Source: an uncultured bacterium (GTDB taxonomy: Bacteria; Verrucomicrobiota; Kiritimatiellia; RFP12; UBA1067). Taken from it: a DNA stretch of 64,000 nt. The stretch spans positions 9,369 to 73,368 of the forward strand of contig CACXRO010000017.1 in assembly GCA_902770045.1 (NCBI GenBank), read 5' to 3'. The translations under genes were made by a program, and so were the position numbers. Shown in pieces: positions 3,951 to 58,665 of this stretch. Every line of letters starts with the position of its first letter. The first letter of the stretch is position 1. Below the pieces are notes generated by a model that worked only from the letters and a program-made list of their open reading frames with translations, had not been told where the DNA came from and did not search any database.

Positions 3951-5057
3951 TCATCGACGCAGGAGCCATTCACCGAAAAACGGGCTGACAAAGCGATATT
4001 CGCCGTCGTAGTTGTATATGATGTCTTCGCGTTCAAGTTTCTCGACGGCCTTTTTCACCGATGCCGCATTAAAGATCTGCGCCTCGGCGAGGAATGCGCT
4101 GGAGAATATCTCCTTGCCGCCGCGCTCGGCGATGGTGCGGAGAACGCGCGTCTGCAGTGCCGTAAGCTGCTTGATCGCGAAAGTGAAGTGATCGTGTTCC
4201 CTGGCGAATATGATTGCAAGTGCCTTTTTGATGTCGGATTCCTCGAGTGTCGTTCCGTTGTCGCTCATCTGCCAGAGCGCATCGCAGAGTTCTTGGACAA
4301 AGCCAGGAGTTTCGTGCGCAGTGTGGGCGATGGCGTCGAACACTAGGCGCGGGAGTATTCGTCCGCCGGTGGCAAAGCGCCGCTTTATGAATTCGAAGAA
4401 GTCGTCCGCATCGATGTTTCCGACCTTGAAGGAGGCGGCGGAATGGTAGAACGGGCTGGAATACTTGAAGAATATCTCAGCCATCTTGTTACGAACGCTG
4501 CCGAGGAAAATATACGGAGTGTTTGCGTCGAGTTGGATCCTGGAGCGCAGTACGGCGAGCGTCCTTTCCCCGTCGTCTATGTCGAGTATGTCCTGAAATT
4601 CGTCGAGCAGGACGCATATCTTACGCCGCTTTGTTTGCTCCAGGAGCACGTCAAGCACGGAGTCGAGCGTCGTTGGTTCGGCGGCAACCCGTGCGTCAAC
4701 TGTTACCGTCGGAGAGCCGGATGACGGGTCGATGGAAACAGTCGGCCTGAGGTGCGCAAGCATGCGTAAGGTCTTTGTCGCCCAGCTTTCGGAATCCTCA
4801 AGACGCGCGATGGCGGCGACAAGTCTGCGGCAGACGTCTGCCTGGTCACGCACGCAGAGGAAATCGGCGTGGAAGAGGGCGATGTTTTTCATGTGGCGCA
4901 CGGTTTCGATCACTAGGGAGGTTTTCCCAGTTCTGCGGTCGCCCTGCATGACGACATTCTGTCCGGATTCTATGCGCGAGGCAAGTTCGCGTTCAAGTAC
5001 AGGGCGTGGGCAGAAGAAGTCTCCATTGACTGTGCAGCCGTATCTGAATGGATTCAT
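3951..5057 (-). CDS. AAA+/P-loop ATP-binding protein (archaeal ATPase-like) with C-terminal winged helix
   Basis: Walker A GDRRTGKT, Walker B LLDEFQ, IFLGS motif. Confidence 0.85.
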   Translation of the reverse strand: MNPFRYGCTVNGDFFCPRPVLERELASRIESGQNVVMQGDRRTGKTSLVIETVRHMKNIALFHADFLCVRDQADVCRRLVAAIARLEDSESWATKTLRMLAHLRPTVSIDPSSGSPTVTVDARVAAEPTTLDSVLDVLLEQTKRRKICVLLDEFQDILDIDDGERTLAVLRSRIQLDANTPYIFLGSVRNKMAEIFFKYSSPFYHSAASFKVGNIDADDFFEFIKRRFATGGRILPRLVFDAIAHTAHETPGFVQELCDALWQMSDNGTTLEESDIKKALAIIFAREHDHFTFAIKQLTALQTRVLRTIAERGGKEIFSSAFLAEAQIFNAASVKKAVEKLEREDIIYNYDGEYRFVSPFFGEWLLRR

Positions 5058-5223
5058 AATGGTTTCCTTTTTTTATTCATGTTCGTTATGTCAATTGGTA
5101 TTATACCATTTGGTATTATGCTATTTGGCATAACGTCTGTAGTATAGCATATTTTGATGTACTAGCGCAACTGGGCCATTTTTGAACCGATTCTGATGAC
5201 GCTACCGCGGCAGTTTGCGCGGC

Positions 5224-43282: not shown

Positions 43283-46183
43283 TCAAAGGTATTTGGCGGT
43301 GAAGGACTCTTTGCAGGCGCGGACCTGGTCGATCGGGCCTTCGCAGACGACGCGGCCGCCGGCGTCGCCGCCGCCGGGGCCGAGGTCGACGATCCAGTCG
43401 GCGCACTTCATGACGTCGGTGTTGTGCTCGATCACGATCACCGTGTTGCCCTGGTCCCGGAGGCGCAGGAGAAGCTTCATCAGCTTGGCGACGTCGTCGA
43501 AGTGGAGCCCGGTGGTGGGCTCGTCGAGGAGGTAGAGCGTGCGTCCGGTCGAGCGCCGCGAAAGCTCCGTCGCGAGCTTGATGCGCTGGGCCTCGCCGCC
43601 GGAGAGGGTGGTGGCGCTCTGCCCGAGCTGGATGTAGCCGAGGCCGACGTCGTCGAGGGTGGCGAGCTTCCGCGCAAGCGAGGGAATCTTCGCAAAAAAG
43701 TCCTTCGCCTCGGCGACGGTCATCGCCAGGACGTCGGCGATGTTCTTGCCGGCGTAGGCGACTTCCAGCGTCTCGGCGTTGAAGCGACGGCCTCCGCACT
43801 GCTCGCAGGTGACGTAGACGTCGGGCAGGAAGCTCATCTCCAGCTTGCGCACGCCGTCGCCGCCGCAGACCTCGCAGCGCCCGCCCTTGACGTTGAAGGA
43901 GAAGCGCCCCGCGGTGTAGCCGCGCGCGCGCGCCGCCTCGGTCTTGGCGAAGAGCTCGCGGATCTCGGAGAAGAACCCGACATAGGTGGCGGGATTGGAG
44001 CGCGGGGTGCGGCCGATCGGCGACTGGTCGATCTCGACGACCTTGTCGAAGTGCTCCGCGCCGGTAAGCTTCGCGAACTTCCCCGGAACCTCCCGCGAGC
44101 GGTAGAAGCGGCGCATGAGCGCGCGCTTGAGCGTCTCGTCGACGAGCGTCGACTTGCCGGAGCCGGAGACGCCGGTTACCACCGTGAACGCGCCGACGGG
44201 GAAGTGCGCGGTGATGTTCTTGAGATTGTGCTCGCGACAGCCGGAGATGGTGAGGTGGTTTAGTGGTTTGGCAGTTTGGTGGGATAACACACGGATTTGT
44301 TCGCGACTAACGTCGCTCACATTTTCAGAATCGCGAGGTTGAATCTTCTTCCTGCCTGTCAAATAGTCGGCAGTGAGCGACTTCGCCTTGAGAAGTCCCT
44401 TGAACGGGCCCTGGTACATCACCTTGCCGCCTTCGCGGCCGGCGCCGGGACCGAGGTCGACAATCCAGTCCGCCGCGCGCATCATCTCTTCGTCGTGCTC
44501 GACGACGACGACGGTGTTGCCGCGGTCGCGGAGCCCCTTGAGGGCGGAGATGAGCCGATCGTTGTCCCGCGGGTGGAGCCCGATCGTCGGCTCATCGAGG
44601 ACGTAGAGGACCCCGGTCAGACCCGAGCCGATCTGCGTTGCCAGGCGGATGCGCTGCATTTCGCCGCCGGAAAGCGACGAGGCCGCGCGGTCGAGGGTGA
44701 GGTAGTCGAGCCCGACGTCAAGCAGGAACTGGAGGCGACGGCAGATCTCCGCCACGATTTCGCCCAGCCCCGAAAGGTTTGTTGCTTGGGGTGCGGTTTT
44801 TTTAGCCGCATAGGACGCAAAGGTCGCAAAGGGTGCGTTCTCTGCGTTCTTTGCGTTCTTTGCGGCTAAACACAACCCATTGAAGAAGGCTAGGGCTTCG
44901 CCGACCGGCATCGCCATTACCTCGACGATGGTCCTGCCGGCGACGGTGGCGGCACGGGAGAACTCGTTGAGGCGGGCGCCGTGGCAGGTCGGGCAGGTGC
45001 GGTAGCTCTGGTACGTCTCCCACTTCGCGCGCGTCTCCTCGTCCTCCGCCTCCTCGAGCCGCTTCTGCAGCGTGGCGAGGACGCCCTCGAAGGGACGGTC
45101 GACGGAGCGCCAGGGCAGAATCAGGTCGTCCTTGAACCCGTGCATCAGGTCGTGGCGGAACTTGGCGGGCAGCTTTTCGTAGGGAGTGGAGAGCTTCACC
45201 TTGTACTGGCGCGCAATCTGCTCCAGGAGCGCGTTGTAGTACATGATCGCGTTGTGTCCGGCGCGGCGCCAGGGGTGGATGCACTCGCGCAGCGGGAGCG
45301 TGCGGTCTGGCACCACCAGCTCCTCGTCGAAGTAGTAGAGGTGGCCGAGGCCGGAGCAGGTCGGGCACGCGCCGTAGGGCGAGTTGAAGGAGAACGACCG
45401 CGGCTTCAATTCGTCGAAGGAAAGTCCGCACTCGACGCAGGCGTTGAGCTCGGAGAACACGGTCGGACGGTCGGGCTTGTCCGCCAGCTCCACCGACATC
45501 ACGCCCTTGCCGGTCTTGAGGGCCAGCTCTACCGAGTCGGTGAGGCGGGTGCGGTCGCAGGGAAGGACAATCCGGTCGACGACGACGTCGATCGTGTGGG
45601 CCTTCTTCTTGTCGAGCGCCGGGACCTCGTCGATCGGATACACCGTGCCGTCGACGCGCACGCGGGCGAACCCGTTGCGCGCGAGCGCGGCAATCGTCTC
45701 CTCGTGGCGTCCCTTCTTGCCCTTGACGACCGGCGCGTAGAGGATTATCCGGCCCGGCTCTCCGGCGGCGAGGGTGTCCACTATCTGTTCGGCGGACTGG
45801 CGGGTCACCGGCCGGCCGCACTTCGGGCAGTGGGGCGTCGCGGCGGATCCGTAGAGGATGCGCAGGTAGTCGTGGATCTCGGTGACGGTGGCGACGATCG
45901 AGCGCGGGTTGCCGCTGGTGGTGCGCTGCTCGATCGAGATCGCGGGCGAGAGGCCCTCGATGCGCTCGACGTCCGGCTTCTGCATCCGGTCGAGGAACTG
46001 CCGCGCGTAGGCCGAGAGCGACTCCACGTAGCGGCGCTGGCCTTCGGCGTAGAGGGTGTCGAAGGCGAGGGACGACTTGCCCGAGCCGGAGAGCCCGGTG
46101 ACCACGGTGAGCGAGTCGCGGGGGATGACGACGTCCACGCCCTTGAGGTTGTGGACCTTCGCGTTCCTGATGGTGATGTCCAT
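43283..46183 (-). CDS. uvrA: Excinuclease ABC subunit A
   Basis: Two ABC cassettes (GLSGSGKSS; GVSGSGKST), LSGGEMQRI and [10 protein letters not shown], zinc fingers. Two repeat-derived in-frame inserts. Confidence 0.98.
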
Positions 46184-51336: not shown

Positions 51337-54300
51337 TCAGATCTCGTTGAGCCCGGGCTTGAGTTCGAGCGACTGTCCGCCGTAGACGAACCTGCCGGCG
51401 ACGGGCGTCCGCACGGTGCCGGCGGCCTTGCCGTCCGCGAACCTGAGCTCGACCTCGATCCAGCCCTTCGGGTGCGGGTGCGACGCCTTGAGCTCGCCGA
51501 GCGGACCGGGGCACGGCGCGACGAGCACCTTCTCGAAGAACGGCGCGTCGGACCTGATGCCGGCGAGCCCGGTCTGCATGAACCAGATCGGGTGCGCGCC
51601 CCAGGCGTGGCAGTCGCTTCTCGACTCCTGCTGCCCGTTCTTGCCCTTGTCCGGTGCCTCCTGCGTCGTGGCGAGGCCCTTCTTCACGTAGTCTCGCCAG
51701 AGGTCGAGCCGCTTGAGGAAGAGGTCGCCGCGCCCGTACTTGAAATACGCCTCGAAGAGATAGTACGAGAAATACACGGTGCAGCGCTTGAGGTTCCTGT
51801 CTTCGACGAGGTGGCGGAACGCGGCGGCGGCCTTGTCCTCGGGCAGGACTTCGCCGACGAGCGCGAGCGCCTGCGCGTGCTCCGAGAAGTCCTTCTTCGC
51901 CGGCGTGTCGGCGAGGAGGGAGCGCCTCGGGTCCCAGAACTTCTCGACGATCTTCGCCTTCAGCGCCGCGGACTTCTCCTCCCAGTACTTCGCCTGCAGC
52001 TCGTGGCCGAGCGCGCGCTCGACCGCCGCGGCGGAGCGCATGGCGAGGTTCCAGTAGAGGTTGAGCTCGGCGTTGACGCCGTCGCCGAAGCGGCAGCCGC
52101 GCGCGGTGCCGTCGCCTTCCCAGCCGTCCGTCCAGTCCATGAAGTTCCAGCCCGGCAGGTTCTCGAGCAGTCCGTCCTTGTTCTCGTAGTACTCCATTCC
52201 CGCCATCGACTTCCTGAGGCCGGGCAGCCGCGCGCGCAGCCACGCGCGGTCGGCGTGGTTCATCGCGTAGTCGCCGTACATCAGCAGGTAGCAGAGTGTG
52301 TAGCTCGCGCCCTCCTGCGTGTAGCGCGTCGGATAGTTGAACGGGCACTGCCCGTCGTCGCGCGTGTTGAGGTCGTAGATTTCGATCGCGCGCCTGATGA
52401 TGCGGTCGTCGCGCGACATCGCGGAGAGGACGTTCAGCTGCACGCGCGTGTCGCCGGGATACATCTGCTGCTCGTAGAACGGGCAGTCGAAGAGCATCTC
52501 GTGGCAGCACATCTGCATCGCGCGCGCGGAGATGCGGCGGATGTCGGCGAGGGACGCGTCGTCGGCCGACGAGAACGCGCTCTCCAGCTCCACCGGATAG
52601 CGCGACTCGATGAGCGCGACGGAGTCGACCGTGAGCGGCTCGTCGCCGGTCTCGACGTCGATCCTCACCCACTTGCCGCAGCGGAACCACGGCGCGGAGA
52701 ACCGCGCCTTCGTCCGCCCGTCGGAGACGAACGTGTCGCCGAAGGCGTTCAGGTAGCGGCCGACGATCGCGTCGCGCGAGCCCGGTTCGCTCGTCTTGAG
52801 CTTGCTGTCGCCGCGCAGCGTCGCCTCGGCGAAGTTGAGCGAGAACTTCGCGCCCTTGCCGCCTGAGAGGACGACGTCCGGGTAGGCGCAGTAGTAGTTG
52901 CCGAGGTCCCACGCAAGCTGCATCTTCGTGCGCGCGGGGACGGTGAACGGCTTGGAGAGGTCGACCGTCTCCTTCGCCTCGTCCTCGGTGTAGACGTGGG
53001 GGCGGCGGAATTCCGTTCCCCTGGCGACCGCCTTGACCCTGCCGGGCGTGCAGCGGATCTCGGTCTGGTCGGGGAGCTGCGAGGGGAAGAGCATCCACCC
53101 GGTCGTGCGGATGCCGTAGATGAACGGACCTGGCACGCCCGCAGGCCCGCGCACGACCTCCGGCTTCGTCCACTCGGCCGGCTCGCCGGAATACGGACCG
53201 CACCCGGTGATCTCGAACTGGTCGCCGCCGCCCCAGGCGCCGCCGTCCTTGCCGGCGGGGCGGATTCCGGAAATTCTCCCCACCGTCCAGGCGCCCTTGC
53301 CGGTGGTGAGCTTCGCGTCGAACTGCCCGTTCGCCTTGAAGATAAAACCGCCGCGGTAGGAAAGCTGCGCGAGCGGGGCCGAGTCGCCGATGACCTGCAC
53401 GTACGCCTCGAAGACGTGGCGCCCCGGCTTCAGGTCGGCGACGTAGGTCTGATACTGCCAGTTCTCCACCGTGCCGCGGTTGGGCCCGCGCGCGACGAAC
53501 TCGCCGTCGAGCAGGAGCACGAAGCGCTCGTCGGCCGAGACGTCGAATACGAGCGGGGCCGCGCCCTCCGCGACCTCGAACTCGTTGCGGAACTTGACGA
53601 AGCAGAACCTGTCGTTCGCCGCGCCGGGCAGCCACAGCCACGACGCGTCGTCGACCGGCTGCACCTTGAGGATGTTGGTGTTGCCGCGGGTGACGCGAGC
53701 GTCGCGGAAGGCGCGGCGGACCCTGGCGCCTTCGACGGCGTCCATCGCGGCGCCGCGGAGGACTTTCGCGCGGCCGTCGTCGAGCCAGTCCGGCCGGTAT
53801 TCGCACTTGCGCACGTCGGCGCCGAAGAGCTTGGCCGTCCATACCAGCCCCTGCAGGTACTGCCCCTGCCGGTTGAAGTGGAAGTCCGGGCTGGTGAAGA
53901 GCTGGTTGCGGTCGTCGACGAACTCCGCCGCGGTGCCGACGGGGATGACCTCCAGGGCGTGCCGCTTCGCGAATGCGGCGTAGGCCGCCCTCAGCCGAGC
54001 GTACATCTCGACCTGGTCGAAGCCGTATTTCCCGAGGCGCCGGTCCCACGGCGGATAGCTCCACGTCTCCTGCACGACGATCTTCGCCTGCGGCGCGAGT
54101 TCGCGGATCTTCGCGACGAGCCTGTCGCCCTCGGGCTGGAACGTCGACGGGTTCCAGCTGTCGTGGCTCGCCTGCTGGACCGTCACCACGTCCCACTTCT
54201 CCATCGCCAGCGCGTCGGGGATGTTGGCGCGTCCGTCCGAGACCTCGGCCTTGCCGTCGGCAGTGCGGTCGAAGCGGTACGGCTTGAACGCGGCGTTGGT

Positions 54301-54543
54301 GGAGGCGACCACGTTGTTCCAGTGGCGCTTGAGCGAGCAGCCGGGGATGTAGAGCGAGCCGAGGTCGAGCTTGAGGCCCATCGACTTCGCGATCGGCGGC
54401 ATCTCCTTCAGGTTGCAGATCGAGAAGCTGTTTCCGATCATCAGCACCTTGAGGGGTTTCTCTTTGGCAGCCGCGGCGGACTCGGCGGCGGGGGCGAACG
54501 ACGCCACGGCGCACGCCGCGGCCAGGATGATGATTTTCTTCAT
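51337..54543 (-). CDS. Secreted DUF4886 (SGNH-like) + GH78 alpha-L-rhamnosidase fusion
   Basis: Signal peptide; IGNSFS, WDVVTVQQAS, QETWSY; then DCPFYEQQMYPGD and SDCHAWGAHP (GH78). Confidence 0.85.
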   Translation of the reverse strand: MKKIIILAAACAVASFAPAAESAAAAKEKPLKVLMIGNSFSICNLKEMPPIAKSMGLKLDLGSLYIPGCSLKRHWNNVVASTNAAFKPYRFDRTADGKAEVSDGRANIPDALAMEKWDVVTVQQASHDSWNPSTFQPEGDRLVAKIRELAPQAKIVVQETWSYPPWDRRLGKYGFDQVEMYARLRAAYAAFAKRHALEVIPVGTAAEFVDDRNQLFTSPDFHFNRQGQYLQGLVWTAKLFGADVRKCEYRPDWLDDGRAKVLRGAAMDAVEGARVRRAFRDARVTRGNTNILKVQPVDDASWLWLPGAANDRFCFVKFRNEFEVAEGAAPLVFDVSADERFVLLLDGEFVARGPNRGTVENWQYQTYVADLKPGRHVFEAYVQVIGDSAPLAQLSYRGGFIFKANGQFDAKLTTGKGAWTVGRISGIRPAGKDGGAWGGGDQFEITGCGPYSGEPAEWTKPEVVRGPAGVPGPFIYGIRTTGWMLFPSQLPDQTEIRCTPGRVKAVARGTEFRRPHVYTEDEAKETVDLSKPFTVPARTKMQLAWDLGNYYCAYPDVVLSGGKGAKFSLNFAEATLRGDSKLKTSEPGSRDAIVGRYLNAFGDTFVSDGRTKARFSAPWFRCGKWVRIDVETGDEPLTVDSVALIESRYPVELESAFSSADDASLADIRRISARAMQMCCHEMLFDCPFYEQQMYPGDTRVQLNVLSAMSRDDRIIRRAIEIYDLNTRDDGQCPFNYPTRYTQEGASYTLCYLLMYGDYAMNHADRAWLRARLPGLRKSMAGMEYYENKDGLLENLPGWNFMDWTDGWEGDGTARGCRFGDGVNAELNLYWNLAMRSAAAVERALGHELQAKYWEEKSAALKAKIVEKFWDPRRSLLADTPAKKDFSEHAQALALVGEVLPEDKAAAAFRHLVEDRNLKRCTVYFSYYLFEAYFKYGRGDLFLKRLDLWRDYVKKGLATTQEAPDKGKNGQQESRSDCHAWGAHPIWFMQTGLAGIRSDAPFFEKVLVAPCPGPLGELKASHPHPKGWIEVELRFADGKAAGTVRTPVAGRFVYGGQSLELKPGLNEI

Positions 54544-54597
54544 GTGCGCATTATACCATAATTTCCGGTCCAGTGGTTGAAGCCCGGTGCCTATTAA

Positions 54598-54870
54598 AGT
54601 TGAAAGGTTGAAAAGTTGAAAGGTTGAAAGGCCGCGGCAGATTGCGCGGCGGTTTTGGTTTAACACGCGGATTTGTTCGCGTCTAACGACGCTCACCTTT
54701 CGCGGCGGCGGAAATCTGCCGCGAAAGCCAACACGGCCCGCGGCAAAAATGGTATAATTCACGCGATGAACAACCGTGACAAGTCCGCGCTTGCGCTCGC
54801 CCTCGCCATCGTGGGCGGAATTGCGGCTGGCTTGCGCTACACCCCGCGCCCCGCGGCATATACAGTAAAA
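54598..54870 (+). repeat. Direct repeat S copy 1: TTGAAAGG tandems + 12-mer + palindrome + promoter + signal-peptide stub
   Basis: Aligns with 56071..56359. Contains the stub ORF 54766..54882 (MNNRDKSALALALAIVGGIAAG...). Confidence 0.9.
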
Positions 54871-54907
54871 ACATGTAGGTGAAGACGGGGGAGAAGGAGG
54901 TTCGCTG

Positions 54908-56008
54908 ATGCCATACGACGATCCGGCACTTAAGGAGTTTGACGGCTATTATCAGGCCAGGAGCGCGAGTCAGAGGGAGCGCGCCGAAAACTGGGCTGTC
55001 GCCATCGGTTTGCAGAAAGTGGATGGGCTTGTTCCGTCGGAACACTTGATTTCCGTTGCGAAGCGTCATATTGAAGGGCAGATTACCGGTGCGGAGGCGA
55101 CAAGTCTTGTCGATCGTTATTACGAGACCAAGGCCGGACATGATCTGCCGGAAGATGTGAAGGAAGCCGATCGCGTCGCTGCCAGGATCAATGAGGTCAT
55201 TGAGGACGAAGGCTTCAGTTTCTCCCCGACATATCTTGTCGCTTTGCATGGATTGATATTCGAGGGCGTGTTCCCCCACGCTGGATCAATCCGCGATGTA
55301 AACCTCCGCAAGCGCGAGTGGGTGCTAAGGGGCGACAGCGTGACATACGGCCACGCTCCGGCGATCGAAAAGACACTGGACTACGATTTCGACCGTGAAC
55401 GGGAATATTCATATTCCGGCAAGGGCAAACGCGAAATCATTGCCCACTTCTCGCGCTTCATTGCCGGGATATGGCAGATACATCCCTTTCGGGAGGGCAA
55501 TACGCGCACGACTGCGGTTTTTGCGATAAAATATTTGAAGTCGATGCGCATCAAGGCAACGAACGATCTTTTTGCGGAGAACTCGTGGTTCTTTCGGAAT
55601 GCCCTTGTGAGAGCCAACTATGAAAATCCGCTTTCCGGAATTTCGCGCGACATGGAGCCTCTCGAACGCTTCTTCCGCAATCTTATCCTTGGCGAGGAAA
55701 ACGAACTTAAGAACCGGTATTTGCTTGTCGGGATCAAACCGTCCGAAAAGGCGCAGCTTGATGCCAACCGGCAAGGCAGTCAGAAAAAAGCGGTCAGAAA
55801 AAAGCGGTCAGAAAAAAGCGGTCAGAAAACGGCTGACCGGCTGGTGTCGCTGCTCAAGGCAAATCCGCATCTCACGCAGGAGGGAATGGTTGCGGCTCTA
55901 ATGATAACGCGGAGCACTGTCCAGAAGCATATTTCAAACTTGAAAAAGTCGGGCCTCCTTCGCCGTGTCGGACCAGACAAGGGAGGACATTGGGAGGTTG
56001 CGAAATAA
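54908..56008 (+). CDS. Fic-family protein with N-terminal VbhA-like antitoxin segment and C-terminal HTH
   Basis: HPFREGNTRT Fic motif; AIGLQKVDGL.PS N-terminus; RRVGPDKGGHWEV winged-helix tail. Confidence 0.9.
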   Translation: MPYDDPALKEFDGYYQARSASQRERAENWAVAIGLQKVDGLVPSEHLISVAKRHIEGQITGAEATSLVDRYYETKAGHDLPEDVKEADRVAARINEVIEDEGFSFSPTYLVALHGLIFEGVFPHAGSIRDVNLRKREWVLRGDSVTYGHAPAIEKTLDYDFDREREYSYSGKGKREIIAHFSRFIAGIWQIHPFREGNTRTTAVFAIKYLKSMRIKATNDLFAENSWFFRNALVRANYENPLSGISRDMEPLERFFRNLILGEENELKNRYLLVGIKPSEKAQLDANRQGSQKKAVRKKRSEKSGQKTADRLVSLLKANPHLTQEGMVAALMITRSTVQKHISNLKKSGLLRRVGPDKGGHWEVAK

Positions 56009-56070
56009 TGACAAAAGGGTTGGACCCTTCTGTATAACGCCGGTTGAAAGGTTGGGCGGAGCCGGTTGAG

Positions 56071-56359
56071 AAGTTGAAAAGTTGAAAGGTTGAAAGGCCG
56101 CGGCAGTTTTGATTAACACGCGGATTTGTTCGCGTCTAACGACGCTCACCTTTCGCGGCGGCGGGAATCTGCCGCGAAGGTTAACACGGAGCGCGGCAAA
56201 AATGGTATAATTCACGCGATGAAACCCCATGCCAAGACCGCGCTTTCCCTCGCCCTCGCCATCGTGGGCGGAATTGCGGCTGGCATGCGCTGTGACGCGT
56301 CCGTGACGGTGGAAACCCCGACGCAGATCAACCCGCGCCCTGCGGCATATACAGTAAAA
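56071..56359 (+). repeat. Direct repeat S copy 2
   Basis: Same order of elements as 54598..54870; stub MKPHAKTALSLALAIVGGIAAG. Confidence 0.9.
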
Positions 56360-56653
56360 GCATATACAGAAGGGTCTGCCCCTTTTGTCCCACTCACTGG
56401 TCAGGCATGGGCCGAATCACCCGACGAAAAGACGGCTGATGCGTTCGCGGCAGACATGCTGTTGCCGGCGTCTTGCAACAGGGAGGTAGCGGCACTCAAT
56501 TCTCTTGCAGAAGTCAGGCGCTTCGCAGATGACCACGACCTTTCGCCGGGCATAGTCGTGGGACGGTATCGCCATATCACGCAACGATTCAACGCATTCG
56601 GCAATTCCATAGCCCGCTTCACATGGTCAGAGGGGATGTGGAGGGTTGCATAG
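56219..56653 (+). pseudogene. Chimeric ORF: signal-peptide stub fused to an ImmA/IrrE-like C-terminal fragment
   Basis: After the S-repeat stub: EKTADAFAADMLLP...SPGIVVGRYRH. The HExxH core is absent. Confidence 0.55.
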
Positions 56654-56704
56654 AGCGCAGCCATCGCGCCAGTCCAATAGAGGCTGACATTGGGAGGTGG
56701 AGAA

Positions 56705-57439
56705 ATGACAAAACTCATTGAAAATGCGCGGCGGGAAGAGTGGATTGCGCTTGCTAAAAGAGTAGGCTACATTCATGCTGCCGATGTTATTGCCTCAGGC
56801 GACATGTCGCAAGAGTGGATGTTTGCCGAACTGATAATTGCATTTGCGGCGGGGCGAGAAAGGGGGCAGGAGGGTTGCTTCTACGATGTCGTACCAGTTG
56901 GCAGCACCGAAACAAGTCCGATTGATGCCTATGATGACAATTGGCTGCTAGAAGGCAAACCAGAAGGAACTGTCGTGCCGCCGGCGAGCGGGCGCGAGAC
57001 AATTAGGACGCCAAACCTGAAATGTGCAAACCCGTCATTCGCGGCAAGATTGATTATGTATGTAAGGGACAAGTTTGGCGGAGATGCACCGACCATATAC
57101 CGGGCAGCGCATATTAGCCGTAAAACGTATTCGGCAATCATCAGCAATGAACTGCGACCGGTCTCAAAGCATGTTGCCATTGCATTTGCCTTTGCGCTAA
57201 GGTTGTCTCTAGCCGAGGCGAAGGAGTTGTTGCGCTCTGCCGGTCACGCACTTTCGGACTTCATCCTTGAGGACATAATCTATCAAGCCTGCATTATCGC
57301 TGGGATTTACGATATAGCACGGGTAAATCAAATATTAACCGCTCATAATGCAAAGCCTTTGCCTTGTCAAGATGAGGCATCAAAATGTCTCCAACGCGGA
57401 GACAACTTAAAAAAAGAACAAACCTACATTCCATTGTGA
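56705..57439 (+). CDS. XRE-type HTH protein (the family often fused to macro domains)
   Basis: IYRAAHISRKTYSAI, SKHVAIAFAFAL.LSL.EAKELLRSAGHALS, YDIARVNQIL. Confidence 0.7.
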   Translation: MTKLIENARREEWIALAKRVGYIHAADVIASGDMSQEWMFAELIIAFAAGRERGQEGCFYDVVPVGSTETSPIDAYDDNWLLEGKPEGTVVPPASGRETIRTPNLKCANPSFAARLIMYVRDKFGGDAPTIYRAAHISRKTYSAIISNELRPVSKHVAIAFAFALRLSLAEAKELLRSAGHALSDFILEDIIYQACIIAGIYDIARVNQILTAHNAKPLPCQDEASKCLQRGDNLKKEQTYIPL

Positions 57440-57484
57440 CAAAAGATATGTTATCATGTTGCACATTGAGAAAGGAACGATAAC

Positions 57485-58615
57485 ATGCTAGATGAATCTA
57501 CAGTAGATAGTCAGTATGAGTTAAAGCAGTGGATTAATCTCATGGATAGAAACGAATGGGCTGTGAAATATCTCGGACGGCGAGTCAAGAAAGAGTTTTG
57601 GGATGAATTTTCATATCATGATCGTTATGCACGTAACAATGGTTTTTCGCGGCATAGAAAGTTTGAATGGGACGGAGGAATCCCCATAGTTGAAGACAGA
57701 AATTTAGAAACTACGAGTTTTGTGCACCTTCTTGAGGTTTCTTTTTATGAATCTGGAGATGAGGAGGGTCGGATAAAGAGTATAGATGCTCAACATATGG
57801 AGTATTGGGAAAACTATTCTAACTGGCAAGATCATGCGGAGCATAGAGTCAGTAACATTCGTCCGCCGACATGGAATGAAATTAGACAGTATTCTGAAAT
57901 CCTTGACAAATATACAATAAAAGAACCAAATGTTGTTATTGAACATTTGCTTTCCTATTTGGAACATATAAGTCAGCGAAAGAGTGGTGATCTTATCCTT
58001 GAGCGGGAGTATGGAGCCACGAATTGTCTTAGAGGATTTCGCCTCAGGTTCAAAACGAGCAAAAACCATTTTGATATTGGGGCCGAAGAACTAGAGAGCG
58101 TGCTTTGTAGGCTCCATTTTGATTTGGGTGCGTTTATATTTGCAAAGGGTGGAGTGAAATATGTATTGAATTTGCTTGATTTCGAGAGAGAGTTCGGGAT
58201 TAGAGAAAGAATTGATAAACTAAAAGATGCGTTCTTATTGCGGCTGTATAAAAGTTCTGAGCAGTACATAACATTTACTGGTGAAAGCAAGAGAATGTGG
58301 TGGCGAAAAGCCAGATGGCGTTTAGCTGAATTGCTTTCGCAAGAATATCGAGAGTTTGAGAATGGTTTGATTTTACACGGATGTGCTGCCGACGTGCCAC
58401 GTAATTATCTGGATCATGATTGGTTCTTCTTTGATCCGTGCTGGGAAATCGTGAATTCTGTTAATGGGTTTTGTGATTTGAAAGAGCCGCCAGTCATATC
58501 AGTACAAATTCCTCCTGTGGCGACGCAAGCGTCGGGCGAGGAATTATTAGATGATGAAGAAAATAGCGCGATAGAAGAGGTAGATGATATTGGGCATCGC
58601 GGGGGATATTATTAA
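57485..58615 (+). CDS. Hypothetical low-GC protein
   Basis: 376-codon ORF with RBS AAAGGA. No family recognised. Confidence 0.6.
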   Translation: MLDESTVDSQYELKQWINLMDRNEWAVKYLGRRVKKEFWDEFSYHDRYARNNGFSRHRKFEWDGGIPIVEDRNLETTSFVHLLEVSFYESGDEEGRIKSIDAQHMEYWENYSNWQDHAEHRVSNIRPPTWNEIRQYSEILDKYTIKEPNVVIEHLLSYLEHISQRKSGDLILEREYGATNCLRGFRLRFKTSKNHFDIGAEELESVLCRLHFDLGAFIFAKGGVKYVLNLLDFEREFGIRERIDKLKDAFLLRLYKSSEQYITFTGESKRMWWRKARWRLAELLSQEYREFENGLILHGCAADVPRNYLDHDWFFFDPCWEIVNSVNGFCDLKEPPVISVQIPPVATQASGEELLDDEENSAIEEVDDIGHRGGYY

Positions 58616-58665
58616 TGTGAGTCGCAATATGTAGTAATGTTCACTCATAAAGAAAGGAAATGTAA

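Follow-up and report, generated by a model that had tools for sequence, protein, structure and literature searches.

Around a fic gene of an uncultured bacterium of the Kiritimatiellia, two direct repeats each place a promoter, a start codon and the beginning of a signal-peptide-like open reading frame (ORF) in front of unrelated genes, which raises the question of what these repeats are and how they came to stand before such different cargo. The stretch analyzed, referred to as the window, comprises 64,000 nucleotides and corresponds to C17:9369-73368 of its own assembly (G000; 2.27 Mb, 87 contigs, 85% complete). Our analysis points to dispersed dimers of the terminal inverted repeats (TIRs) of a Y1 transposase element of the RAYT/TIRYT type, which probably enclose a promoter, punctuate a genomic island and are shuffled by homologous recombination. 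For description, we will use "head" as a working name for the dispersed repeat with promoter, ATG and signal-peptide ORF, and "stub" for that ORF. A total of 61 genomes of the genus were compared by BLAST; G019 and G047 denote two sister species of G000. The two heads beside fic consist of the following features:

54599 to 54877, plus strand: head copy 1, with tandems, 12-mer, S-repeat, hairpin, promoter, ATG and a 38-codon stub ORF (54766-54882); both ends are cut short
56010 to 56036, minus strand: left terminal hairpin motif of copy 2, GACAAAAGGGTTGGACCCTTCTGTATA, a 27-nt inverted repeat 89% complementary to 56363-56389
56037 to 56362, plus strand: body of head copy 2, with GTTGAAAG tandems, 12-mer, S-repeat, hairpin, TGGTATAAT, ATG and a 47-codon signal-peptide stub
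56343 to 56389, plus strand: right-hand 47-nt end motif of copy 2, composed of GCATATACAGTAAAAGCA and the 27-mer TATACAGAAGGGTCTGCCCCTTTTGTC, with a sharp outer edge
56219 to 56653, plus strand: stub ORF of copy 2, 144 amino acids in all, reading on into a gene fragment without a family match

A repeat search of the window returned three collinear block pairs, i.e., a 185-nt core (54654-54838 and 56107-56291; 91% identity), a 45-nt block (54599-54643 and 56065-56109; 93%) and a 38-nt block (54840-54877 and 56329-56366; 89%), which MAFFT alignment joined into one repeat of approximately 280 bp with indels of 13 nt and 36 nt. Both copies are composed, in the same order, of GTTGAAAG tandems, a single CGCGGCAG 12-mer, the small palindrome TAACACGCGGATTTGTTCGCGTCTAACGACGCTCAC, a GC hairpin (CTTTCGCGGCGGCGGAAATCTGCCGCGAAAG at 54697-54727 in copy 1), the promoter box TGGTATAAT (54750-54758 in copy 1 and 56203-56211 in copy 2), 7 nt, an ATG (54766 and 56219, respectively) and the signal-peptide-like ORF, which in copy 1 ends with ...PRPAAYTVK. 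An earlier reading of the DNA made from its letters only (the sequence-only reading) had described two direct repeats around fic; these are real, and every part that it named is present in copy 1. Its observation that both repeats part ways at one shared point into unrelated cargo was confirmed by the alignment and by the ORFs after the heads, the point of divergence lying directly past ...CATATACAGTAAAA(A/G)CAT. The right end of copy 1 falls within the 47-nt motif, at ...GTAAAAACAT, and its 36-nt gap is a recent in-frame deletion, as two further metagenome assemblies retain these nucleotides at the locus. Copy 2 is a complete head (56010-56389); it extends 27 nt beyond the shared repeat, into the hairpin motif TATACAGAAGGGTCTGCCCCTTTTGTC, and the inverted 27-mer on its left directly abuts the fic stop codon. 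The gene fragment after copy 2 has no Pfam or NCBIfam match; an ImmA/IrrE-like tail, suspected at first, was not confirmed by either database. In BLAST searches of G000, the two copies were 87% identical to one another and each was nearer to copies elsewhere (92 to 94%), which shows that they did not arise by local duplication. The order rhamnosidase gene, copy 1, fic, copy 2 and cargo recurs in independent assemblies with 98 to 100% identity and is therefore not an assembly artefact.

Heads form a dispersed family that belongs to a small clade of Kiritimatiellia from rumen and gut. At least 10 were found in G000, and BLAST matches numbered 13 in G000, 12 in G019 and 11 in G047; any head match was present in 16 of the 61 genomes, most others having none or the last approximately 45 nt only. 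Full or partial copies in G000 lie on C52, C44, C24, C21, C71, C10, C1 and C8, together with a third copy on C17, and an identity of 85 to 95% over 130 to 280 nt is maintained before genes for Fic, LemA, GH28, CesT-like, AlbA_2-like, BNR-like and Rhs proteins and before other nonhomologous genes. A complete head features inverted hairpin motifs of 27 to 47 nt (TATACAGAAGGGTCTGACCCTTTTGTC) at both ends, enclosing tandem repeats (GTTGAAAG and CGCGGCAGTTTG), the small palindrome, the promoter and a 47-codon ORF with the appearance of a Sec signal peptide followed by a linker; besides copy 2 on C17, complete heads of G000 are located at C37 and C26, and intergenic heads range from 170 to 640 bp in length. 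Inverted dimers of the 27-mer were recorded at C17, C37, C26, G014 C56, L160, L162, L176, L203 and L204. In RUG14537 (L140), an entire array is formed in which a gene is followed by an inverted 47-mer, 12-mers, GTTGAAAG arrays, palindrome, hairpin, promoter, stub, 47-mer and the next gene, and the series is then repeated. The stub measures 141 nt in 21 of 23 copies. Since the GTTGAAAG arrays and the small palindrome also gave many separate BLAST matches in G000 on their own, the parts of the head are modules with distributions of their own; one copy of the small palindrome, TAACACACGGATTTGTTCGCGACTAACGTCGCTCAC, is found at window positions 44280-44324, 10 kb upstream of the heads.

The terminal 27-mer is an imperfect palindrome, ACAGAAGGGT-CTG-ACCCTTTTGT, with 10-bp arms and a 3-nt loop, and is usually preceded by CATATACAGTAAAACA. 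It occurs approximately 14 to 20 times in G000, in both orientations, 13 times in G019 and at least 8 times in RUG14537, the reversed control giving 0; among 185,579 species genomes there were 25 matches, all in metagenome-assembled genomes of the rumen/gut Kiritimatiellia type. The edge of the motif is sharp, with 38 distinct outer flanks in genomes and 70 distinct outer flanks among 72 sites on metagenome contigs, the 47-nt inner part being present at 57 of these. At the C17, C37 and C26 pairs, the flanks of which were read by eye, no target duplication was present. Sites with the promoter on the inner side have a real gene within 60 nt downstream (11 promoter-type junctions), and sites with another inner context abut the 3' end of an opposite-strand gene, in some cases overlapping its stop codon. 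In a generic terminator scan, the 27-mer was terminator-like on the minus strand only. An arrangement in the style of integron cassettes, with the start codon directly after the 27-mer, was considered and dropped: an ATG within 5 nt was present at 11 of 38 junctions, followed by a long ORF in just two.

Two loci illustrate how the edge meets other genes. A complete head of 270 bp is located between a decarboxylase-like gene and truA (G000 C37:13154-13423, L080), with the stop codon of the upstream gene inside the left 27-mer; an ATG within this head opens in the frame of truA and extends the protein at its N-terminus by about 30 residues, G019 showing the same arrangement and G047 a partial version, and truA of most of the genus starts with MKRKYK. 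At C24:20691-22390 of G000 (L005, L114), a GH28 protein is encoded whose 94% ortholog in G019 (C39, L115) is the C-terminal half of a 936-residue esterase-GH28 protein. In G000, a head stands in place of the first approximately 460 residues, and homology restarts 2 nt past the 27-mer with the frame kept. This junction lies inside a coding sequence, so the motif edge can be joined to arbitrary DNA; a truncated enzyme, supplied with the promoter and the signal peptide of the head, is the predicted outcome. Downstream of the same 119-residue gene, quite different cassettes are found in RUG14537 (L137) and G019.

In relatives, the motif flanks a transposase gene. The metagenome contig L198 carries, between inverted 27-mers, an ORF of 375 amino acids that matches Pfam Y1_Tnp with 32.7 bits (cut-off, 23 bits) and features a C-terminal Fic-like_C winged helix as well as HIH and YVDCNP (Y---NP) motifs; the protein has no sequence-level match in the PDB to a RAYT. 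Homologs with 67 to 81% identity are situated beside 27-mers in G012, G016, G074 and four metagenome contigs. Specifically, inverted copies of the motif flank the Y1 gene left and right in L198 and G012 (L217 = L135), a single flank carries the motif in L214, L218, L177 and L143, whose contig or gene is truncated, and its orientation is ambiguous at the Y1 gene of G074. Remnants of the ends of the Y1 element lie beside further 27-mers, and Y1 paralogs with 36 to 41% identity have no 27-mer nearby. Because the motif is the inverted flank of a Y1 gene in relatives, the heads look like gene-less dimers of the ends of a Y1 element. In the layout of REPtrons and TIRtrons, a Y1 gene is located between inverted, partly self-complementary repeats that are also dispersed singly and as dimers (PMC3733652). 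Long Y1 proteins with a C-terminal helix-turn-helix (HTH) constitute subclass 2.1 of class 2, for which Y---NP is the signature; no REP-like structures were reported beside the genes of this subclass (PMC6006769).

The promoter within the heads is by far the commonest type in G000. TGGTATAAT occurs 298 times in the 2.27 Mb, compared with 2.5 occurrences expected from base composition, and in about half of these cases the start codon of an ORF of at least 60 amino acids is found 6 to 10 nt past it; the head, with its ATG 7 nt past the promoter, has the same leaderless layout. Given this excess and the spacing of the start codons, leaderless mRNAs appear usual in G000, and judged from the sequence, leaderless transcripts from an extended −10 box seem to be its main mode of expression. 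The head before fic would thus be expected to transcribe it. The stretch from the stop codon of the stub to the GGAGG ribosome-binding site of fic itself, located 26 nt past that stop, is devoid of a terminator-like site.

Most ORFs starting at the head ATG (in G000, G019, G047 and others) stop 28 to 95 codons in, at varied points. In other cases the stub is fused in frame to GH28 (G000 C24), a rhamnosidase (G019), a BNR-like protein (G000 C8) or an Rhs fragment. A database search with the first 58 residues returned five proteins only, which comprise 290 to 924 residues and have unrelated bodies (DUF1566, an SASA esterase, a 759-residue protein and two miscalled read-throughs). The catalogue of what follows the stub, which the sequence-only reading had proposed to compile, includes at least six unrelated bodies and many early-stopping ORFs. 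The stub is accordingly described here as a putative N-terminal module common to unrelated proteins, with no single parent in the database.

Comparison of the fic cassette among contigs indicates that heads also serve in exchange. Eight other contigs, on which the gene has various surroundings, code for an identical Fic protein, and with 95 to 100% nucleotide identity the fic gene has different downstream neighbors on other metagenome contigs. Three of the eight (95 to 98% nucleotide identity) match the window from copy 1 through fic into copy 2 and then diverge at different points. One exit is located right after the −10 box and leads into a LemA gene, an ortholog of the one on C1 of G000, whose head is without fic; a second lies exactly at the outer edge of the 27-mer and leads into another gene (L076 being homologous with the window up to the edge only), and the third falls within the GC hairpin. 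One of the three contigs carries the other allele of the middle block of the stub upstream of the same fic junction, and every combination of the three alternative blocks is represented in the 21 full-length stubs, all four combinations being present among the heads; the head copies are mosaics. Varied exits together with block mosaics are the pattern expected from repeated homologous exchange and support the idea of a recombination anchor, acting via dispersed homology. Of the proposal that the repeat serves as recombination anchor and promoter donor, the function is thus supported, given the commonest promoter type, the unrelated cargo and the breakpoints of the fic cassette inside heads; the resident gene through which it was thought to act is not.

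Taken together, the reading that we consider probable, namely, heads as dispersed TIR dimers of a Y1 element, would operate as follows. The heads punctuate the island, which occupies the promoter spacer that separates the rhamnosidase gene from parC in relatives, with copy 1 before fic, copy 2 before the next block and copy 3 on an Rhs tip. Each head would transcribe the DNA downstream of it and, where the junction is in frame, would also provide a start codon and an export signal. Heads of approximately 90% identity represent portable homology, such that a cassette flanked by two of them can swap into any other head by homologous recombination, as the comparison of contigs shows. The precise outer edge could have been made by a Y1 enzyme cutting single-stranded DNA at the foot of the hairpin, which would account for arbitrary DNA, mid-gene positions included, being joined at the same nucleotide without target duplications.

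Several observations weigh against this reading. In the assemblies of G000 and G019, the genomes richest in heads, no close Y1 homolog was found, but 33 to 38% paralogs only (G000 being 85% complete). The two paralogs of G000 (C25:25077-25757 and C43:4290-4967) are RAYT-like Y1 genes for proteins of about 365 residues with HFH and YIHLNP motifs and a C-terminal HTH, and they are flanked by a different hairpin, AGGTCWGACCT (...AAAATNAGGTCWGACCNAAATT...), the GGTCWGACC tip of which is like that of the 27-mer. (The second hairpin is also found inside some heads, at C44 and L140.) The left junction of the fic cassette sits within the 47-nt motif and not at its edge. With no −35 match in the head, its promoter was missed by a generic sigma-70 scan. 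Variable sites in the 21 stubs are distributed over the three codon positions as 15/13/16, an even variation that gives no sign of purifying selection on the stub at the protein level, and most stubs meet a stop codon shortly past the motif. Heads occupy orthologous positions in G000 and G019 (truA, the CesT-like gene and the C10 stub), which implies that they are stable on that timescale. Finally, an empty-versus-filled site for a single head was sought at truA and the C24 locus and no clean case was obtained, as synteny differs among relatives or the flanks are 51 kb apart in G019; transposition of a head was therefore not seen.

The first alternative is a purely regulatory leader, in which the promoter, the leader ORF or RNA and the terminal hairpin control expression, selection conserves the unit, homologous recombination alone spreads it, and the Y1 gene is a passenger. 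The hairpin located within 60 nt upstream of real genes at the 11 promoter-type junctions and the nearly fixed length of the stub speak for such a leader, as do the long helices into which it folds in single-sequence RNA predictions. Left unexplained are about 100 distinct junctions at one nucleotide, one of them inside a coding sequence, the inverted copy at the 3' ends of upstream genes, and the presence of the motif beside one Y1 clade and not beside the paralogs. Moreover, an Rfam scan of 53500-64000 (E ≤ 1) gave a chance-level match only, and inspection of the aligned stubs by eye revealed no convincing compensatory changes. We regard this explanation as unlikely overall, and as a possible one for a role of the head at the RNA level.

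A second alternative extends the dimer reading to cassette capture. In this case, a Y1 enzyme of the TIRYT type would join the hairpin end of a head to arbitrary DNA, yielding gene cassettes prepared for expression and at times also for export, and homologous recombination between heads would spread them through the population; functionally, this would resemble an integron with an HUH enzyme in place of the integrase. Candidate products of such capture are the decapitated GH28 domain, the Rhs tip and the fragment that follows copy 2. We hold such capture to be quite unlikely.

If, instead, the 27-mer were the site of a tyrosine or serine recombinase, as in integrons or dif modules, the blocks between inverted 27-mers would be its cassettes. 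Gene blocks are indeed tightly bracketed by inverted 27-mers at C44, C26, G019 C27, L168, L173 and L174, stop codons abut or overlap the motif, and the junctions are sharp. However, bracketing is automatic if every intergenic head has inverted ends, the center of the palindrome is 1 to 3 nt and not a 6- to 8-nt spacer, and G000 has no serine recombinase and four tyrosine recombinases (Phage_integrase matches), all on other contigs. The sole gene found repeatedly between motifs is the Y1 transposase; a search for a transposase in blocks bracketed by (+)...(−) 27-mers yielded unrelated cargos (small membrane proteins, an exported protein and GH13). This explanation is very unlikely.

The sequence-only reading had taken the repeats for the decapitated start of a large exported-protein gene at this locus. 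In the version weighed here, they would be duplicated 5' ends of one resident gene, at which incoming elements integrate and copy that end in the style of elements targeting tRNA genes. Its appeal lies in the direct repeats, each followed by foreign DNA, in the plausible signal peptide, and in copy 3, which is fused to a real protein fragment on the same contig. The comparison with relatives bears directly on it, and for this purpose the remaining features of the locus are as follows:

51337 to 54543, minus strand: DUF4886/GDSL esterase fused to alpha-L-rhamnosidase, a core gene at the left flank (Pfam), with a leaderless start behind its own TGGTATAAT
54580 to 64000 and onward to the equivalent of window 68136, plus strand: strain-specific island of lower GC (C17:63948-77504), from the empty site in G019/G047 and the GC profile
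54908 to 56008, plus strand: cargo 1, fic with a C-terminal winged HTH (Pfam Fic, 3.1e-11; MarR_2/HTH_11)
56705 to 62600, plus strand: cargo 2, six proteins (244 residues; 376 residues; 198 residues, weak VRR-NUC; Sel1-repeat; 747 residues; 125 residues)
62885 to 63690, plus strand: two tandem arrays of the 12-mer CGCGGCAGTTTG, flanking a lipoprotein-like gene of 203 residues (62985-63596)

Orthologs of the rhamnosidase show 97% identity in G019 and 77% in G047, and in both species nothing but approximately 45 to 70 bp with divergent promoters, empty of the island, separates them from a parC-like gene. This spacer harbors no such exported-protein gene, and intact genes with this signal peptide, sought beside the rhamnosidase in G019 and G047, were absent. 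Furthermore, the stub heads the unrelated proteins and dead-end ORFs described above at other loci and in other species, copies 1 and 2 are not mutual closest relatives, the 86.5-kb contig has no integrase, and a tRNA search of the window was negative, so that there is no tRNA-type attachment site. The resident gene is thus largely refuted by the empty site and extremely unlikely. The sequence-only reading would itself have been abandoned if no intact parent gene existed and the cargo were invariant across strains; no parent was found, and the cargo does vary, with a 13.6-kb island absent in two relatives.

That the inverted 27-mers flip copy 2 in the manner of an inverton or shufflon and switch expression between its sides, as a promoter bracketed by 27-nt inverted repeats may suggest, is hardly credible, since a single orientation was observed on all of the approximately 15 independent metagenome contigs that span fic and copy 2, the corresponding head in front of the essential truA points the same way in G000 and G019, the G000 assembly contains no invertase (Resolvase-family) gene, and a flipped copy 2 would read only antisense into fic.

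In G000, the island comprises 13.56 kb between ...GAAGCCCGGTGCCT and TGAACCACGAATATGC..., and its left start coincides with that of copy 1. It contains, in this order, copy 1 and fic; copy 2 and at least seven unrelated low-GC genes; the lipoprotein gene between 12-mer arrays; an ATPase_2 gene; the fusion of copy 3 with Rhs; a small gene; and an ISL3 fragment. The NCBIfam matches of fic were below cut-off. Three tandem 14-nt units, AAAGCGGTCAGAAA, lie within fic between the Fic domain and the HTH (window 55773-55828); a unit length not divisible by 3 makes the basic linker encoded by them, QKKAVRKKRSEKSGQK, nonrepeating. On a 78-kb metagenome contig from another sample covering the same locus (L105, 3218-4304), fic is split into ORFs of 304 and 77 amino acids, which suggests a frameshifted allele in the population. 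Head copy 3 lies beyond the end of the window, 9 kb further along the contig (L001 2794-4357 = C17:75162-76725), and is joined after 14 codons to approximately 280 residues of an Rhs core ending with ...DPINRTDPSGL and a subsequent tip of approximately 110 residues (L001 2794-3984; RHS_repeat, 1.6e-07). A gene for 123 amino acids follows directly, and the two look like a lone pair of toxin tip and immunity protein with a borrowed start. A classical orphan array of polymorphic toxin (Rhs) tips was ruled out, as no full-length rhs gene with a shared core lies upstream; the G000 assembly contains no full-length rhs gene and a single Rhs fragment only. At the right end of the island (L001, about 4660-5136), a zinc-ribbon fragment of the ISL3 type is found together with several GGGACAGTCCCC-type palindromes just before the parC promoter.

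The finding joins two fields that are usually separate, namely, the REP (repetitive extragenic palindromic)/TIR repeats associated with domesticated Y1 transposases on the one hand and mobile promoters on the other. If it is true, one block supplies a promoter, a start codon, a Sec signal and homology for exchange to Fic, toxin tips, defense-type genes and glycoside hydrolases. It would thereby offer a mechanism for the immediate expression of foreign low-GC genes in a host of 65% GC and for the rewiring of secreted-enzyme repertoires in an abundant uncultured rumen lineage. Moreover, Y1 enzymes of subclass 2.1 (TIRYT type) would gain a candidate DNA substrate, which is missing according to the literature (PMC6006769).

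Among known systems, REPtrons and TIRtrons (Di Nocera 2013, PMC3733652; Quentin 2018, PMC6006769; Ton-Hoang 2012, PMC3333891) share with the heads a Y1 protein of the HUH type that features HuH and Y---NP motifs as well as a C-terminal HTH (subclass 2.1), inverted and partly self-complementary flanks, tens of gene-less copies between genes as singlets or inverted dimers (BIMEs, bacterial interspersed mosaic elements, and REPINs, REP doublets forming hairpins), and the lack of target duplications. Unlike those of a few tens of base pairs in these systems, the dimers described here span 170 to 640 bp and contain a full promoter together with a start codon and a signal-peptide ORF; in addition, their copy number is low (14 to 20 per genome), and the two genomes with the most heads showed no cognate gene. 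With rows of mostly promoter-less, same-strand accessory genes, a repeated hairpin-forming site and tight spacing, the heads also resemble integron arrays and clusters of attC sites lacking integron integrases (CALINs), from which they differ by a contig without integron integrase, sites of alternating orientation, a promoter of its own at each junction and the absence of an R/L box layout.

The REP2 repeats of Neisseria and the IR repeats of Borrelia (Delihas 2011, PMC3184786) likewise carry a promoter, a translation start and an ATG with an open frame upstream of unrelated genes, and occur in 20 to 30 dispersed copies with occasional ORF fusions. REP2, however, has no terminal inverted repeats or known enzyme, whereas the heads are leaderless and their frame is that of a signal peptide. 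The Correia elements (CREE, Correia repeat enclosed elements) of Neisseria (Siddique 2011, cited in PMC3184786) and putative mobile promoters (Nijveen 2012, PMC3575422) are small, TIR-bounded, non-coding units with outward promoters that lie at either end of genes (5' or 3') and may overlap ORFs. In contrast to the heads, Correia elements measure 104 to 157 bp and their ends are not Y1-element hairpins. Correia elements also make TA duplications. Repeats with a promoter and an ATG, TIR elements with promoters, putative mobile promoters and REP/TIR families of Y1 enzymes are thus already known. What is new is their combination, i.e., long TIRYT-type TIR dimers enclosing a leaderless promoter and a signal-peptide ORF, together with the predicted in-frame donation of this ORF to exported glycoside hydrolases and the comparative evidence for head-mediated exchange of cassettes.

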